Shown one piece after another: positions 5,162-19,986 of a DNA stretch of 28,392 nucleotides. The number at the start of each line of letters is the position of its first letter. Within the stretch, counting starts at the first letter, position 1. The translations under genes and the position numbers were made by a program. The notes under the pieces are model-generated. The model was given only the letters and a program-made list of their open reading frames with translations. It made no database searches and was not told where the DNA came from. The stretch comes from a bacterium (GTDB taxonomy: Bacteria; Patescibacteriota; Patescibacteriia; Patescibacteriales; GWE2-39-37): positions 1-28,392 of the forward strand of contig JAJYMT010000069.1 of assembly GCA_021786695.1 (NCBI GenBank), written 5' to 3'.

Positions 5162-5785
5162 TTACACTCTCCTCGGCTTCTTCGGCCGGCAGCCGCCGTG
5201 CGGGATCGGCGTCAGGTCTTTGATCGCCGTCACTACCAGGCCGTTGGCGTTCAGCGCCCGGATAGCCGATTCGCGGCCGGTGCCCACGCCGCGGACGAAC
5301 ACATTGACCTCGGATAAGCCGTATTCCTTCGCTTTCTCCACCGCGATGCGGGTGATGATCTGCGCGGCGTAAGGCGTCGATTTTTTCGGGCCCTTGAAGC
5401 CGGCGATGCCGGCGGAGGCCCAGGACAGCACATTACCCTCTTTATCGGTCAAAGTGATGATGGTGTTGTTGTAGGAGGCCTTGACGTAAGCGCGGCCGAC
5501 AGTCACCCGCCGATCCGCTTTTTTCTTCCGCTTCTTTTTTCTGGTGTCGGTCCGTTCGGCCTTCTTTTTTTCCAGATGCTTCTTGACGCTGTCAGGCAGT
5601 TCCTCCGGCTGGTTCAAGCTGGTCTTGATCACCTTGTCTTCGGTGGCGGAATCGCGCAAAGAAACGATTTGCTCGGCCGCCTCCGCTTTCTCGGTCTTTA
5701 TCTCTTTCTCCGCAGCAACCTCAGCCGGCTCGGCCGCCTGCGGTTCGTCTGTGACCTTATCAATTGTAGTATCTTTTTTCGTCAT
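5162..5785 (-). CDS. rpsK: 30S ribosomal protein S11 with a long N-terminal extension
   Basis: '[36 protein letters not shown]', '[18 protein letters not shown]'. Confidence 0.98.
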
Positions 5786-5834
5786 TTTATAACTGTTCGA
5801 ATTTCCTAATTAACTAATTACCTGAGCGCCTAAC

Positions 5835-6227
5835 TTATGTTTTCTGCGCCGCCTTGGCGCGGCCCGAACCCATGGTCTTGCGGGTATTGCCGCGAACAGT
5901 GCGGTTGTTGGTCTTGGTGCGCTGGCCGCGGGCCGGCAGGCCCTTCTGGTGTCTTGAGCCGCGGTACGACCCGATATCTTTGAGCCGCTTGATATTAGCC
6001 ATCACCTCGCGCTTCAGGTCGCCCTCGACCTTGTTCTGCTTTTCGATGATGACGCGGATCTTGTTCACTTCCTCGTCCTTCAGGTCTTTGACCCGGGTAT
6101 CGGGGCTGACTTTCGCCTCGCCCAAAATCTGGCTCGACTTGGTGCGGCCGATACCGTAAATATAAGTCAAAGCGATCTCGACTCTTTTTTCATTCGGAAT
6201 TGTGACTCCGGCGATTCTTACTGCCAT
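5835..6227 (-). CDS. rpsM: 30S ribosomal protein S13
   Basis: '[24 protein letters not shown]', '[25 protein letters not shown]'. Confidence 0.99.
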
Positions 6228-16789: not shown

Positions 16790-17533
16790 TTAGGGTGCGA
16801 CAGCTACGATGTTCCCAACCGGGCATGGTTTGTCCGAATTATACTGGTTCCTGAATTGCTGGATGCTGAATTCGATGTCGGCTCCGAATTTGTCGGTTTG
16901 CACATTATTGGTAACCGTGCCGGGAACCTCCCAGGCGATACCGTAATAAGTGGTGGAACCGCCGGTGAGTTTACCCAGGCCCCAGTTTTCAACCGCGTCC
17001 AGGGTGCCCGTGGTTAACTGGACATCACCGCAATTCGGACTGTAAACGTTATCACCCGGCCTTACATTGGCACATTCAACGGTATCGTTAGATTTCCCCA
17101 TATCGGACCAGATAGTGAAGATGGTGTTTTCGTCCAATTCGCCGTCGCCGGTCGGAGTGCAAGCCGGTTCTTCGGCCAATTCCGGTTCGGTGCAGCTGAC
17201 ATCAGAGTCGACATTCTTGGTGATTTTTGCAAAACCGCAAGCATCGTTGTTGTTTACATGCAAGCTGACGGTATCTTCACCCTTATCGCCGGGTTTGACG
17301 TCACCCAAGCTGAAAAACAGATCGCCTTGACCCAAATCCTTCAACGACCAGTTGCCATAGTTGGCGGTTTGGCCGTTGTAGGTGGCCTGGCTGTCAATCG
17401 TTAAATCGAGCGCCCCGGCGGTGAAAGTATTACCGGTCGAGGTCTCGGTGTCCGAGAAATAAGCGGTGGTGGCGCCGATGGCGACCGCCGCGACCGCCGC
17501 GATCATCGCGACGCTTAAAATAATTTTTTTCAT
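16790..17533 (-). CDS. tasA: TasA/camelysin-family protein, probable major fibre subunit
   Basis: 'MKKIILS...GATTAYFSDTETSTGNTFTAGALDLTID', 'DVKPGDKG'; first gene of the cluster; single domain. Confidence 0.85.
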   Translation of the reverse strand: MKKIILSVAMIAAVAAVAIGATTAYFSDTETSTGNTFTAGALDLTIDSQATYNGQTANYGNWSLKDLGQGDLFFSLGDVKPGDKGEDTVSLHVNNNDACGFAKITKNVDSDVSCTEPELAEEPACTPTGDGELDENTIFTIWSDMGKSNDTVECANVRPGDNVYSPNCGDVQLTTGTLDAVENWGLGKLTGGSTTYYGIAWEVPGTVTNNVQTDKFGADIEFSIQQFRNQYNSDKPCPVGNIVAVAP

Positions 17534-17680
17534 AGGTTTTCTTGCCGGTTAAACTTCCTTGATCGTCGCTGTCGTTCCATTCGACCTTTAAAATTTGGCG
17601 GCAGCGTAATCGTCCCTATAGTTTAACCGTGTTAGTTAATAATTTATTAATATATAAACTTAATAATCTTTTGAATATAA

Positions 17681-17729
17681 AACGCCCCCAAATAAATGAC
17701 TTGCAAGAAGCCACTGATTTGAGGGCGTT
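17681..17729 (-). terminator. Terminator-like hairpin after the zinc-ribbon gene
   Basis: Minus-strand RNA AACGCCCUCAAAU...AUUUGGGGGCGUU (13 bp with one G-U pair) followed by UUAUAUU. Confidence 0.55.
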
Positions 17730-17780
17730 GATGTTTCAAAGAAACGTATATGCCCGACTTGAATATTCAGTTGTAAATTA

Positions 17781-17996
17781 CTACGGCATCAGCGGGAAAG
17801 GCGCCGGCTCCTCTTCGCAGTAGGCCTCGGCCGGACTGCAGGTTTTGCACTGGATATATATATCATTTCCGCTAGGTGTCAGGATATTCTGGCTTTTGCA
17901 TTTCGGGCATTTCTTTTCCTGCTTCAGTGTCCCGGCCGATTTGGTGATGTTGGCGAAATGGTTCGAGCACCTGGCACAGCGCCACATAAAATCCAT
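17781..17996 (-). CDS. Small zinc-ribbon protein, Mu Com-like
   Basis: 'WRCARC...EKKCPKCKSQN...CKTC'; the RCxxC...CPxC..N spacing resembles phage Mu Com. Confidence 0.6.
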   Translation of the reverse strand: MDFMWRCARCSNHFANITKSAGTLKQEKKCPKCKSQNILTPSGNDIYIQCKTCSPAEAYCEEEPAPFPLMP

Positions 17997-18009
17997 ATTT
18001 TTTCGAATC

Positions 18010-18041
18010 AAAAAGCTCCGTCATCAATGACGGAGCTTTTT
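18010..18041 (-). terminator. 15-bp perfect hairpin plus U-tract 13 nt upstream of the Com-like start
   Basis: AAAAAGCTCCGTCAT-CA-ATGACGGAGCTTTTT. Confidence 0.75.
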
Positions 18042-18061
18042 CGCGTATGCTTCGCGTATGC
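18040..18061. repeat. Direct repeat TTCGCGTATGC x2 abutting the hairpin
   Basis: Exact copies at 18040-18050 and 18051-18061. Confidence 0.9.
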
Positions 18062-18206
18062 AATAAAATTAAACACACAAACAAACCAAGTTTCTGGCCG
18101 GGAACGTCTATTAAAGCAAAGATTCATCATCTTTTTTCAAAAAATTTTGAAAAATATGTAATTTTTTGCCAAAGATTAGTTGGTTTTACAGGTCAAAAGT
18201 ATTCAC

Positions 18207-18234
18207 AGCATAGCAAATAAGCGGGATTAGTCAA
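18207..18234 (-). promoter_or_regulatory. Promoter TTGACT-N16-TATGCT (extended -10) upstream of the Com-like gene
   Basis: -35 at 18229-18234, -10 at 18207-18212 preceded by TGC. Confidence 0.65.
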
Positions 18235-18306
18235 GCGATCCTTCCGAGTGATAGATAGAAATAAACCGCTAAAATTAAATTAATAATTTACTTGGATGCT
18301 CAAAAC

Positions 18307-18328
18307 AAAAAAGGTCCGGTCGGACCTT
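18307..18328 (-). terminator. Terminator after the CAP-domain gene
   Basis: AAGGTCC-GACC-GGACCTT-TTTT on the minus strand. Confidence 0.75.
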
Positions 18329-18337
18329 CGGCGGGGT

Positions 18338-18360
18338 TGTGGATAAGTTACTGTGGATAA
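18338..18360. promoter_or_regulatory. Two perfect DnaA boxes (TGTGGATAA) in direct orientation
   Basis: Exact consensus at 18338-18346 and 18352-18360. Confidence 0.7.
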
Positions 18361-18381
18361 GTCGCTATCGAAAAAGACGGA

Positions 18382-19986
18382 TTAAACCATAATCAACAAG
18401 ATCAGTAAAGCGATCAGTCCGACCGTCGAGCCGATAAGATGGTGGTGCTGTTTCTTTATTTCGATGAAGATATTCAAGACCAGCGCCAGCCCGGCCAGCG
18501 CCAGGAGTAATTTATAGTAACCGGAGGTAAAATCAAACATCGCCTGGACCAGGGGCGTCTGGTTGGCGCGCAGAAAACTGTAATGGCCGATCACGGAAGC
18601 CGGAGCCGTTCTGACCGCCGGCAGCGGTAAATTAAGGACGGCGTCGTTGCCGGCAAGGTCGCGCGCCCTGATTACGGCCGGCACTTCCGTGGCGCCGCTA
18701 GATTTTTCCGAAGAGAGCACGCCGTAGCCGAGCCAGCGATCAGCCCGGTTCTTATCCCGATAAAGGGTGATCGTATTCCCCCAAAAATCGGCCTGGGCGC
18801 TCGCGGTATCTTCGCTCAGGCGGGCGGTGATTTCAAGCGTGGTTTCGGATCCTCCCTTAAGCAATTTGATGCGGGAATCGGCAAGATCGAGTGCGGGCGC
18901 GGTCTTATCGATCGTGAGATCTATCGCGGAGGAGCTGGCCGTATATTTTCCGTTGCGCGCGATTGCCTGGGCGTGATAAACGCCCTCGGGCAAGGTCAGC
19001 ACCAGATAGCTCGTGTCGGCGGTCAGATTATCTGCCGCGACCTTGCGCTGGCCGTTTAAAAATAACTCAAAGGACGAAGCGCCGGGATGGCTTAGGACGA
19101 AATTAATTTCCGCTTTGTTGGTGACGGCAGAAGCGGCCGGCGAAATGATTACGGGCGCCGAAAGGGCTGCGGTCTTGGGCGGCGCGACTGCCGGCGCCTT
19201 ATTGCCGAGCACGCCGATCCTCGCGGTCCGCTCAAGCACCATCGCCGTCGCCGGTTCGCCCGCCGCAACAGCCGCCGCGGCCGGTTTCGCCCGCCGCGGC
19301 GCGCCGAAGTATTGCGCGACAAAAGTGGTGTCAGAATTTTTGTAACTGCCGGCAGAAAAGCCGACTCCGATCTCGCTGAAATCCTTATCGACCAGATTTT
19401 TCATATGAGTCGGACTGTTCTGCCAGGCCGTAACCGTTTCCTCGGGAGTGGAAAAACCCATTGCCAGATTCTCGCCTGCCACCGCGAAATCATATTTGGC
19501 CTGCGCGAGCCAAAAAGCCAGTCCCCTGCCCTCCGGATTCAGATGGGCGAAATATTCCTTTGTCAGCATATCCTGCGCTTTGCTTTCGGCCGCGTAATCA
19601 AGCAAACGGCTTTCATCGAGCAGATTTACGCCGGCCTGCTGGCGGAGACGGTTGGTCAGGTTGATGATTTTCTCGCCCTGCGCTCCGGCCGTGTCCGGCG
19701 CCAGCCAGGCGCTGATCGGCATCAGATAAACGAAAGCGATCAAGATCAGCTTGACCGCAACGGCCGAGGCGGCGTGGAATGCCACTCTTTTCGGATGCAG
19801 GATACGCGGAGCATAGTTGTTACCCTGATGAGGGATGAAAAGATTCTTGAGCGCGCCCGGCTTTGGGCCGGATTTCGTACCCGCTTCCGCTAAAGGCGAT
19901 TTTTTCCCGCCGGAAACATCAACCAGCCGCGGAAATTTTTGTTCCCGCAGCCAGAGTGAAAGTTTGCCTGTTAGTCGGCTGGTCAT
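18382..19986 (-). CDS. CAP (SCP-like) domain membrane protein with an Ig-like domain
   Basis: 'IINLTNRLR', 'AAESKAQDMLTKEYFAH', 'AGENLAMGF', 'WQNSPTHMKNL...FSEIGVG'; 'LTIDKTAPAL'; N- and C-terminal TM helices. Confidence 0.88.
   Translation of the reverse strand: MTSRLTGKLSLWLREQKFPRLVDVSGGKKSPLAEAGTKSGPKPGALKNLFIPHQGNNYAPRILHPKRVAFHAASAVAVKLILIAFVYLMPISAWLAPDTAGAQGEKIINLTNRLRQQAGVNLLDESRLLDYAAESKAQDMLTKEYFAHLNPEGRGLAFWLAQAKYDFAVAGENLAMGFSTPEETVTAWQNSPTHMKNLVDKDFSEIGVGFSAGSYKNSDTTFVAQYFGAPRRAKPAAAAVAAGEPATAMVLERTARIGVLGNKAPAVAPPKTAALSAPVIISPAASAVTNKAEINFVLSHPGASSFELFLNGQRKVAADNLTADTSYLVLTLPEGVYHAQAIARNGKYTASSSAIDLTIDKTAPALDLADSRIKLLKGGSETTLEITARLSEDTASAQADFWGNTITLYRDKNRADRWLGYGVLSSEKSSGATEVPAVIRARDLAGNDAVLNLPLPAVRTAPASVIGHYSFLRANQTPLVQAMFDFTSGYYKLLLALAGLALVLNIFIEIKKQHHHLIGSTVGLIALLILLIMV

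Follow-up and report, generated by a model that had tools for sequence, protein, structure and literature searches.

Comparison of homologous loci identifies the locus studied here as one instance of a Patescibacteria-specific two-part module, made up of a zinc-ribbon gene and a structured RNA element, and the pair is probably an undescribed on/off control for secreted surface-protein genes. The invariant partner of the gene in this comparison is an element downstream of it, which the original prediction had not seen. Judged from the sequences compared, the zinc-ribbon gene probably regulates the fibre genes at the RNA level, and its conserved target would be this downstream terminator element and not the repeats upstream of the gene. 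In Rfam, Pfam and the literature searched, the module appears to be undescribed.

To our knowledge, gene regulation in Patescibacteria is almost uncharted. Members of this group cannot be cultivated on their own, and they presumably attach to host cells by means of surface fibres and adhesins. In relatives, the zinc-ribbon gene heads clusters of secreted or fibre proteins. The pair is compact, consisting of a 71-aa protein and an RNA of ~45 nt; it stands at the head of such clusters in dozens of species and is directly testable in vitro and in heterologous reporters. If the assignment is true, a zinc-ribbon antiterminator would tie phage Mu Com to a cellular role.

The Locus and the Zinc-Ribbon Protein

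The window is the whole stretch of DNA that was analysed (28,392 nt). Coordinates are window positions, and all features of the locus lie on the minus strand (Table 1). The genome that holds the window is 83% complete and comprises 0.84 Mb (843 kb). Downstream of the zinc-ribbon gene we find three Peptidase_M73/TasA-like proteins of 247, 486 and 762 aa (PF12389), the largest of which also carries DUF11 and LTD domains, together with an S26/SipW-like peptidase, a 193-aa protein that matches PF10502. The window hence shows the combination that marks a TasA/camelysin fibre operon, Peptidase_M73/TasA proteins with a SipW-type S26 peptidase downstream. The zinc-ribbon gene had been placed directly upstream of tasA. 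A TasA-like gene does come next, but 247 nt lie between the zinc-ribbon stop and its ATG, a stretch in which a further, conserved terminator element is found.

Table 1. Features of the zinc-ribbon locus in window positions.
Feature	Position	Strand	Remark
CAP-domain gene	18382-19986	-	upstream neighbour of the zinc-ribbon locus
Two perfect DnaA-box 9-mers (TTATCCACA), 14 nt apart	18338-18365	-	upstream of the promoter-like site
Terminator of the CAP-domain gene	18310-18329	-	separate; that gene's own
Sigma-70-like promoter pattern TTGACT-16-TATGCT	18207-18234	-	TG before -10; consensus match only
Two exact tandem copies of GCATACGCGAA	18040-18061	-	
Perfect 15-bp palindromic hairpin, then UUUUUGAUU	18010-18041	-	terminator-like; arms 18041-18027 / 18024-18010
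71-aa C4 zinc-ribbon gene	17781-17996	-	ATG at 17996
Conserved downstream RNA element (model R1)	17673-17757	-	box A, P1, box B, P2, U-tract
Box A, GGCATATACGTTT	17742-17754	-	family consensus GGCAT-n-AACGTTT; 12.5 bits
P1, small hairpin GTTTC-TTT-GAAAC	17733-17745	-	
Box B, ACATCAACGCC	17724-17734	-	16.2 bits
P2, long hairpin, then U-tract	17681-17729	-	conserved foot AACGCC/GGCGTT; intrinsic-terminator form
Box C, AAAGGTCGA	17581-17589	-	56 nt 5' of the TasA-like ATG; enclosed by inverted repeat 17546-17555 / 17620-17629
First TasA/camelysin-like secreted subunit gene	16790-17533	-	ATG at 17533; PF12389; presumed regulated target

The 71-aa ORF, whose product shows the CxxC...CxxC arrangement, is by its pattern of conservation a real gene of a small, narrow, Patescibacteria-only family. 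We found 32 clusters at 90% identity (E below 1e-13) and 15 representatives at 50% identity among 1.8 billion proteins, and the family reaches 32 species-level genomes. The homologues come from Parcubacteria, Falkowbacteria, Kuenenbacteria, Buchananbacteria and other Patescibacteria MAGs, while IMG/VR viral contigs contained no relative. The core is 50-70% identical, with W5, C7, C10, H13, G22, K29, C30, C33, K34 and N37 invariant, and the C-terminus is variable and acidic. AlphaFold2 models the protein as an all-beta zinc ribbon (pLDDT 71) with beta strands up to residue 53; beyond residue 50 the pLDDT drops to 46-57. Small size, an N-terminal CCCC zinc site and a low-confidence C-terminal tail together give the Com-type architecture. 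A Foldseek comparison with the PDB gave no match at E<=0.001, the best and non-significant neighbour being LysW (E 0.43), a zinc-ribbon carrier protein with an acidic tail, and a sequence profile search of the PDB furnished only weak matches to the aIF2-beta zinc ribbon (E 0.3). For such a generic zinc-ribbon fold, which lacks a significant structural neighbour, binding of DNA or protein is therefore also possible. Separately, a 2098-aa protein of the representative library (P0039) contains 21 stretches that match the 71-aa query (E 3e-10), as if this zinc ribbon were repeated in one giant array.

Com of phage Mu, a C4 zinc finger of 62 aa whose tail is disordered, binds an RNA hairpin beside a regulatory structure (PMC6483171). 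The Pfam family PF10122 (Zn_ribbon_Com, curated threshold 22.9 bits) gives no match to the window protein at E<=0.1, and 4 of 40 family members match below threshold with E 0.04-0.1 (best 0.039); Mu Com itself scores 36.8 bits. When we aligned the family with hhalign to 18 Com relatives, both knuckles were aligned, at a probability of 86% with a pairwise E of 4.8e-6 over 30 columns; with Mu Com alone the value was 65%, and both figures have to be read in the light of the fact that short Cys-rich profiles can inflate scores. On these alignments, the name Com-like that had been given to the CxxC/CxxC gene is fair for the fold, with membership of the Pfam Com family below threshold. Shared ancestry with Com is perhaps indicated by the same profiles.

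Both proteins are small C4 zinc ribbons (62 aa for Com, 71 aa here), the C-terminal tail of each is disordered or of low confidence, the knuckles RCxxC and E-x-x-CPxCK agree, and the regulator gene lies directly 5' of the genes under its presumed control. The presumed target here is again an RNA hairpin beside a regulatory structure (PMC6483171). In contrast to Com, our family has 3-4 more residues between the knuckles, W5, H13 and N37 are additionally invariant, and the family is cellular, Patescibacteria-only and devoid of an IMG/VR relative. The structure linked to the gene is a transcription terminator, whereas that of Com is a stem that sequesters a start codon, and the boxes described below are unlike the SELEX Com motif GAGNNCC.

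A Conserved RNA Element behind the Gene

For the comparison we used 36 distinct homologous loci, 34 of which extend far enough on the 3' side. K-mer discovery returned ACATCAACGCC and GGCGTTTT downstream of the gene in ~30 of the 36 loci, against maxima of 16-19 in shuffled sequences, and a pattern search located box B in all 34 loci with enough 3' sequence. All loci with enough 3' sequence (34 of 34 by pattern) share a three-part arrangement of box A, a small hairpin, and a box B that opens a long hairpin closed by GGCGTTTT(T). Read as RNA, this is GGCAU-n-AACGUUU, the small hairpin, and then ACAUCAACGCC, which opens P2. From 5' to 3' the element consequently consists of GGC, AUnAAC, GUUU-loop-AAAC (P1), AUCAAC, a GCC that opens P2, and the U-tract. 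Box B also occurs as ACAACAACGCC, ACACUAACGCC and AUAUAAACGCC, and its last 6 nt are the foot of the 5' arm of the terminator P2. The distance from box A to box B varies between ~19 and 33 nt through the variable loop of P1. In most loci the element sits 8-114 nt past the zinc-ribbon stop.

The predicted fold of P2 has -17 to -30 kcal/mol across the homologues (-27 to -30 kcal/mol in one fold set). P2 covaries in 24 sequences: 92% of the cells are paired, compared with 30-57% in slid controls, and 6 of its 12 pairs show changes on both sides. The U-tract that follows is invariant. P1 contains 2 pairs with compensatory changes in relatives. P2 has the form of an intrinsic terminator and lies between the regulator gene and the structural genes.

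A covariance model of the element (R1) gave one strong match in its own genome (69.6 bits, E 6e-12), with the runner-up at 23 bits. Across 151 genomes of the order, each match with E<1e-7 was located 8-96 nt past a zinc-ribbon ORF; the single exception is truncated where its contig stops. Box A is missing from the three weak matches that have no zinc-ribbon gene, which are simple AACGCC...GGCGTTTT terminators. When ten loci were excluded from the model, 10/10 were recovered. A scan of window positions 17300-18600 with Rfam 15 returned chance-level matches only, the best being Xoo2 with 25 bits against a gathering score of 45. We discarded the idea that box A belongs to a sigma-54 or sigma-70 promoter, since it stands too close to the -10-like sequence and at too variable a distance from it. 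A pattern search of the own genome with CATCAACGCC was swamped by matches in coding sequences.

Proposed Mechanism

Box A and box B are near-repeats of each other, and this allows an alternative RNA hairpin, GGC-[AUnAAC]-GUUU...AAAC-[AUCAAC]-GCC, whose two strands in the 6x6 internal loop are identical. In the outer helix the GCC of box B pairs with the GGC of box A, and the first bases of the terminator's 5' arm are taken up in this way. The alternative hairpin is 99.4% paired in 24 sequences; the only variation in GGC is a change of C to U in 4 sequences, which keeps a wobble pair. Because the outer GGC:GCC helix is invariant, covariation cannot prove it. With -1 to -7 kcal/mol, compared with -17 to -30 kcal/mol for the terminator, the alternative hairpin is far weaker, so that a stabilising factor would be needed. 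Since this weak hairpin can sequester the terminator's 5' arm, we favour protein-stabilised antitermination, following the logic of HutP and RAT, and the strict one-to-one adjacency of gene and element makes the zinc-ribbon protein the obvious candidate for the antiterminator factor.

By default, transcription of the zinc-ribbon gene would stop at P2. The protein, perhaps as a dimer, would bind the two AUnAAC strands of the weak alternative hairpin formed by GGC:GCC and GUUU:AAAC. The stabilised hairpin would then tie up the AACGCC foot, and RNA polymerase could continue into the surface-protein genes. The best explanation we can offer is therefore an antitermination of the HutP or BglG/RAT type, exerted at the downstream element by a Com-like zinc ribbon, and we would give it an even chance of being right. 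The RNA-level switch with a terminator that had been envisaged for this locus is still its best reading. The gene downstream of P2 may in addition have its own promoter after P2. In three metatranscriptomes of the same study, read coverage at the locus was zero.

The arrangement resembles the hut operon of Bacillus subtilis, in which hutP is followed by a terminator and HutP binds this terminator at two sites ~20 nt apart (PMC12591593, PMC2425495). In both systems the unit begins with the regulator gene, the intercistronic gap ahead of the structural genes contains an intrinsic terminator, and there are two repeated single-stranded sites ~20 nt apart, one of which overlaps the terminator (PMC2425495, PMC12591593). 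The proteins differ. HutP is a hexameric alpha/beta protein that is activated by histidine and Mg2+ and recognises NAG triplets, whereas the window protein is a zinc ribbon without an evident ligand-binding domain, and the genes presumed to be regulated here encode surface proteins.

A RAT hairpin, in turn, needs a protein (dimer) to win over the terminator. Like the RAT elements of the CAT-domain antiterminators BglG, SacY and LicT, the alternative hairpin is weak, imperfect and quasi-symmetric, has conserved nucleotides in its internal loop and overlaps the 5' arm of a much stronger terminator (PMC12591593). The protein fold, however, is unrelated, PRD or PTS control is absent from the window system, and the regulator gene lies directly 5' of the element it would act on. 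CAT, ANTAR and HutP proteins make up the list in a review of RNA-binding antiterminators from 2025, in which zinc is never mentioned (PMC12591593), so that a zinc-ribbon antiterminator would be new. We put forward, with clearly less than even confidence, a new class of RNA-binding antiterminator in which a dimeric Com-related zinc ribbon would clamp the quasi-symmetric internal loop (two AUnAAC strands) of a RAT-like hairpin in competition with the sequence-conserved terminator, and would gate the expression of surface fibres and other secreted proteins across Patescibacteria.

The Upstream Leader

The promoter proposed for the gene shows 9 of 12 consensus matches and lies ~205 nt before the zinc-ribbon ATG. 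The region contains 4 such sites where 2.2 are expected, and we consequently regard it as a pattern match only. Between this site and the repeats the leader is A+T-rich, and a second DNA sample is identical over the leader. The two tandem copies run into the 15-bp hairpin with its U-tract exactly as had been described (18061-18010), and the spacer of 13 nt from the hairpin to the gene, GATTCGAAAAAAT, is likewise exact. The arms of the hairpin, 15 nt each and perfectly complementary, are 2 nt apart, and TTTTTGATT comes next. In both the MFE and the centroid fold of the leader this hairpin dominates; for the leader as a whole the folding energy is -51.1 kcal/mol (z = -3.07). The idea of a repeated mobile element was rejected, as the hairpin is present as a single copy in the 843-kb genome.

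In the relatives, a hairpin with a U-tract lies <=40 nt from the ATG in 7 of 36 loci (19%), a ~4-fold enrichment; the controls are 38 of 782 ORFs of the own genome and 1 of 44 neighbouring genes. Within 100 nt the count is 13 of 36 loci (36%), with 110 of 782 and 5 of 44 in the controls. Across the 36 homologous leaders we found no repeat or other sequence motif in common. From this comparison, the upstream hairpin is a recurrent option and not a defining part of the module; the hairpin and the 11-mer repeat of the window are lineage-specific. We take the hairpin, most likely, for a strong intrinsic terminator of the ordinary kind, by which expression of the regulator gene would be limited or insulated. 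It may attenuate a transcript that begins near 18200, or it may only close off an upstream unit while the gene is read from a promoter beside its ATG. The eye-catching repeat-plus-hairpin of one genome is hence not the conserved signal, a caution for annotation.

For this upstream part one could also assume that there is no RNA switch at all: the hairpin would end a short transcript or block read-through, and the gene's own promoter would overlap the 3' side of the hairpin to give a leaderless or nearly leaderless mRNA. The family genes lend this some colour, since a Shine-Dalgarno-like sequence is found in none of the 36, T stands at -1 in 33 of 36, an A+T-rich block covers -13 to -5, and the gap from hairpin to ATG is so short. 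T at -1 (27/44) and the lack of a Shine-Dalgarno sequence (34/44), however, are general traits of these genomes, and the 13-nt spacer has no convincing -35 partner. We consider a leaderless mRNA possible but doubtful. The 44 called genes are those of loci L005-L015, where a Shine-Dalgarno-like sequence precedes 10, and initiation without Shine-Dalgarno seems to be the rule in these Parcubacteria-type genomes.

Two further observations concern the leader. The tandem repeats and the hairpin are both spanned by a 40-aa ATG ORF (18008-18130, minus strand) whose end lies 9 nt short of the zinc-ribbon ATG; it showed no conservation and is probably a chance ORF. In 10 of 36 loci the 400 nt ahead of the gene contain perfect DnaA-box 9-mers (TTATCCACA), with a background of ~0.04 per 400 nt. 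The loci are the window and L020, L029, L030, L031, L034, L037, L043, L044 and L047. The own genome has 14 such 9-mers in all, two of which form the tandem pair in front of the promoter-like site. This suggests that DnaA, or another reader of the same box, acts on the promoter of the regulator.

Secreted Genes and Box C

Read from the sequences, every ORF that follows the module starts with a signal-peptide-like N-terminus. Recurrence next to sipW/tasA in relatives had been named as a check. We do find TasA-like genes together with a SipW-like peptidase in L005/L006, L005 having four M73-like genes and an S26 peptidase, but the first gene is TasA-like in only 4 of 31 homologous loci (window, L005, L014 and L019). 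In ~20 loci the next gene belongs to an uncharacterised family with the motif APIVKAKWE and in ~7 to a Gly-rich family. These three groups link the module to secreted surface proteins in general and not to TasA specifically. The commonest of these families has ~370 aa and an N-terminal TG(L/F)TRDTSGG-APIVKAKWE (L011:3038-4183, L008:6912-8075 and ~18 others). It is without a Pfam domain, and its look-alike clusters in the Atlas come from Minisyncoccota and Methanobacteriota archaea.

Between the terminator and the next gene, most loci contain one to three copies of box C (AAAGGUCGA), usually followed by a variable hairpin. In ~20 loci box C lies 15-76 nt before the start codon. It also precedes second genes of the clusters (L005:9731, L007:7763) and two other secreted-protein genes of the own genome (on contigs C14 and C61, minus strand), and before secreted-protein genes it is always in sense orientation. 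Genome-wide, AAAGGTCGA is rarer than its reversed control, in genomes with and without the zinc-ribbon gene. The AAAGGUCGA-hairpin leaders could form a second layer of the same regulon. Box C might serve for processing, stabilise the 5' end or be bound by a protein. In one genome of the order (G121), AAAGGTCGA is found within the first 31 bases of at least 7 contigs (C17:25, C31:31, C37:3, C43:12, C51:30, C57:25, C59:8), which suggests that a multi-copy repeat containing box C breaks the assembly.

These leaders offer another place where the protein might act. The downstream element would then be the gene's own terminator or a 3'-end stabiliser, and the protein would be either a Com-type translational activator on the AAAGGUCGA-plus-hairpin leaders or a protein-binding secretion or assembly factor. 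The position of box C shortly before the start codon, its presence at second cluster genes and at the two other secreted-protein genes, and the action of Com on a hairpin beside a start site (PMC6483171) all fit such a role, as does LysW as the best, non-significant, structural neighbour. Across orders, however, ordinary terminators do not conserve 25 nt of flanking and foot sequence, a direct functional link is indicated by the strict pairing of each box A/B with an adjacent gene, and some secreted-protein genes with box C have no zinc-ribbon gene nearby. We judge action elsewhere to be improbable and continue to favour antitermination at the downstream element.

Other Readings of the Boxes and the Repeats

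The boxes might alternatively work as DNA. In a mechanism like that of phage Q or Ogr they would be DNA sites that load the protein onto RNA polymerase, which would then read through P2. The order of regulator, short terminated unit and structural genes does resemble lambda Q-PR'-tR', Q of lambda has a zinc ribbon (PMC9388147), a -10-like TATAAA is often found between box A and box B, and the NCBI label of the Com relatives is 'DNA-binding transcriptional regulator'. The variable distance between the boxes, however, fits an RNA hairpin and not a fixed promoter geometry, P1 shows compensatory changes, and a consistent -35 element is missing. Loading of polymerase at DNA sites is thus quite unlikely in our view, and protein-stabilised antitermination on the RNA is preferred.

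This leaves the tandem copies of the 11-mer GCAUACGCGAA, an arrangement that was equalled in 0 of 100 dinucleotide shuffles. No other exact copy exists in the genome, and the 11-mer is absent from the homologous loci. As to similar repeat-plus-hairpin leaders, whose recurrence in relatives was to be checked, what is found there is the hairpin near the ATG in the minority of loci given above. As a genome-wide operator the 11-mer was rejected, because its matches with 1 mismatch equal those of the reversed control. It was also rejected as a diverged box A or B, since it scores 3.3 bits against the box profile, where the true boxes reach 12.5 and 16.2 bits and the 95th percentile of shuffled sequences is 6.6.

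The original prediction, that the protein binds the upstream repeats, antiterminates the upstream hairpin and spreads a positive autoregulation to the fibre genes, draws on repeats that abut a strong terminator-like hairpin, on the enrichment of hairpins close to the ATG and on unrelated direct repeats upstream in 5 further loci (p_shuf 0-0.01), but it is very unlikely, given that this repeat is confined to one locus and scores below the 95th percentile of shuffles against the box profile, that homologous leaders are not enriched for boxes (1.65 vs 1.56 bits), and that a protein core of 50-70% identity should mean a conserved target, which lies downstream. Counting the window, direct repeats are found upstream in ~6 loci, and their sequence is different in each. 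In L007, a long G+C-rich tandem array of CCCTACCGCCCTAA-like units (~5700-5850) fills the intergenic region 5' of the zinc-ribbon gene.
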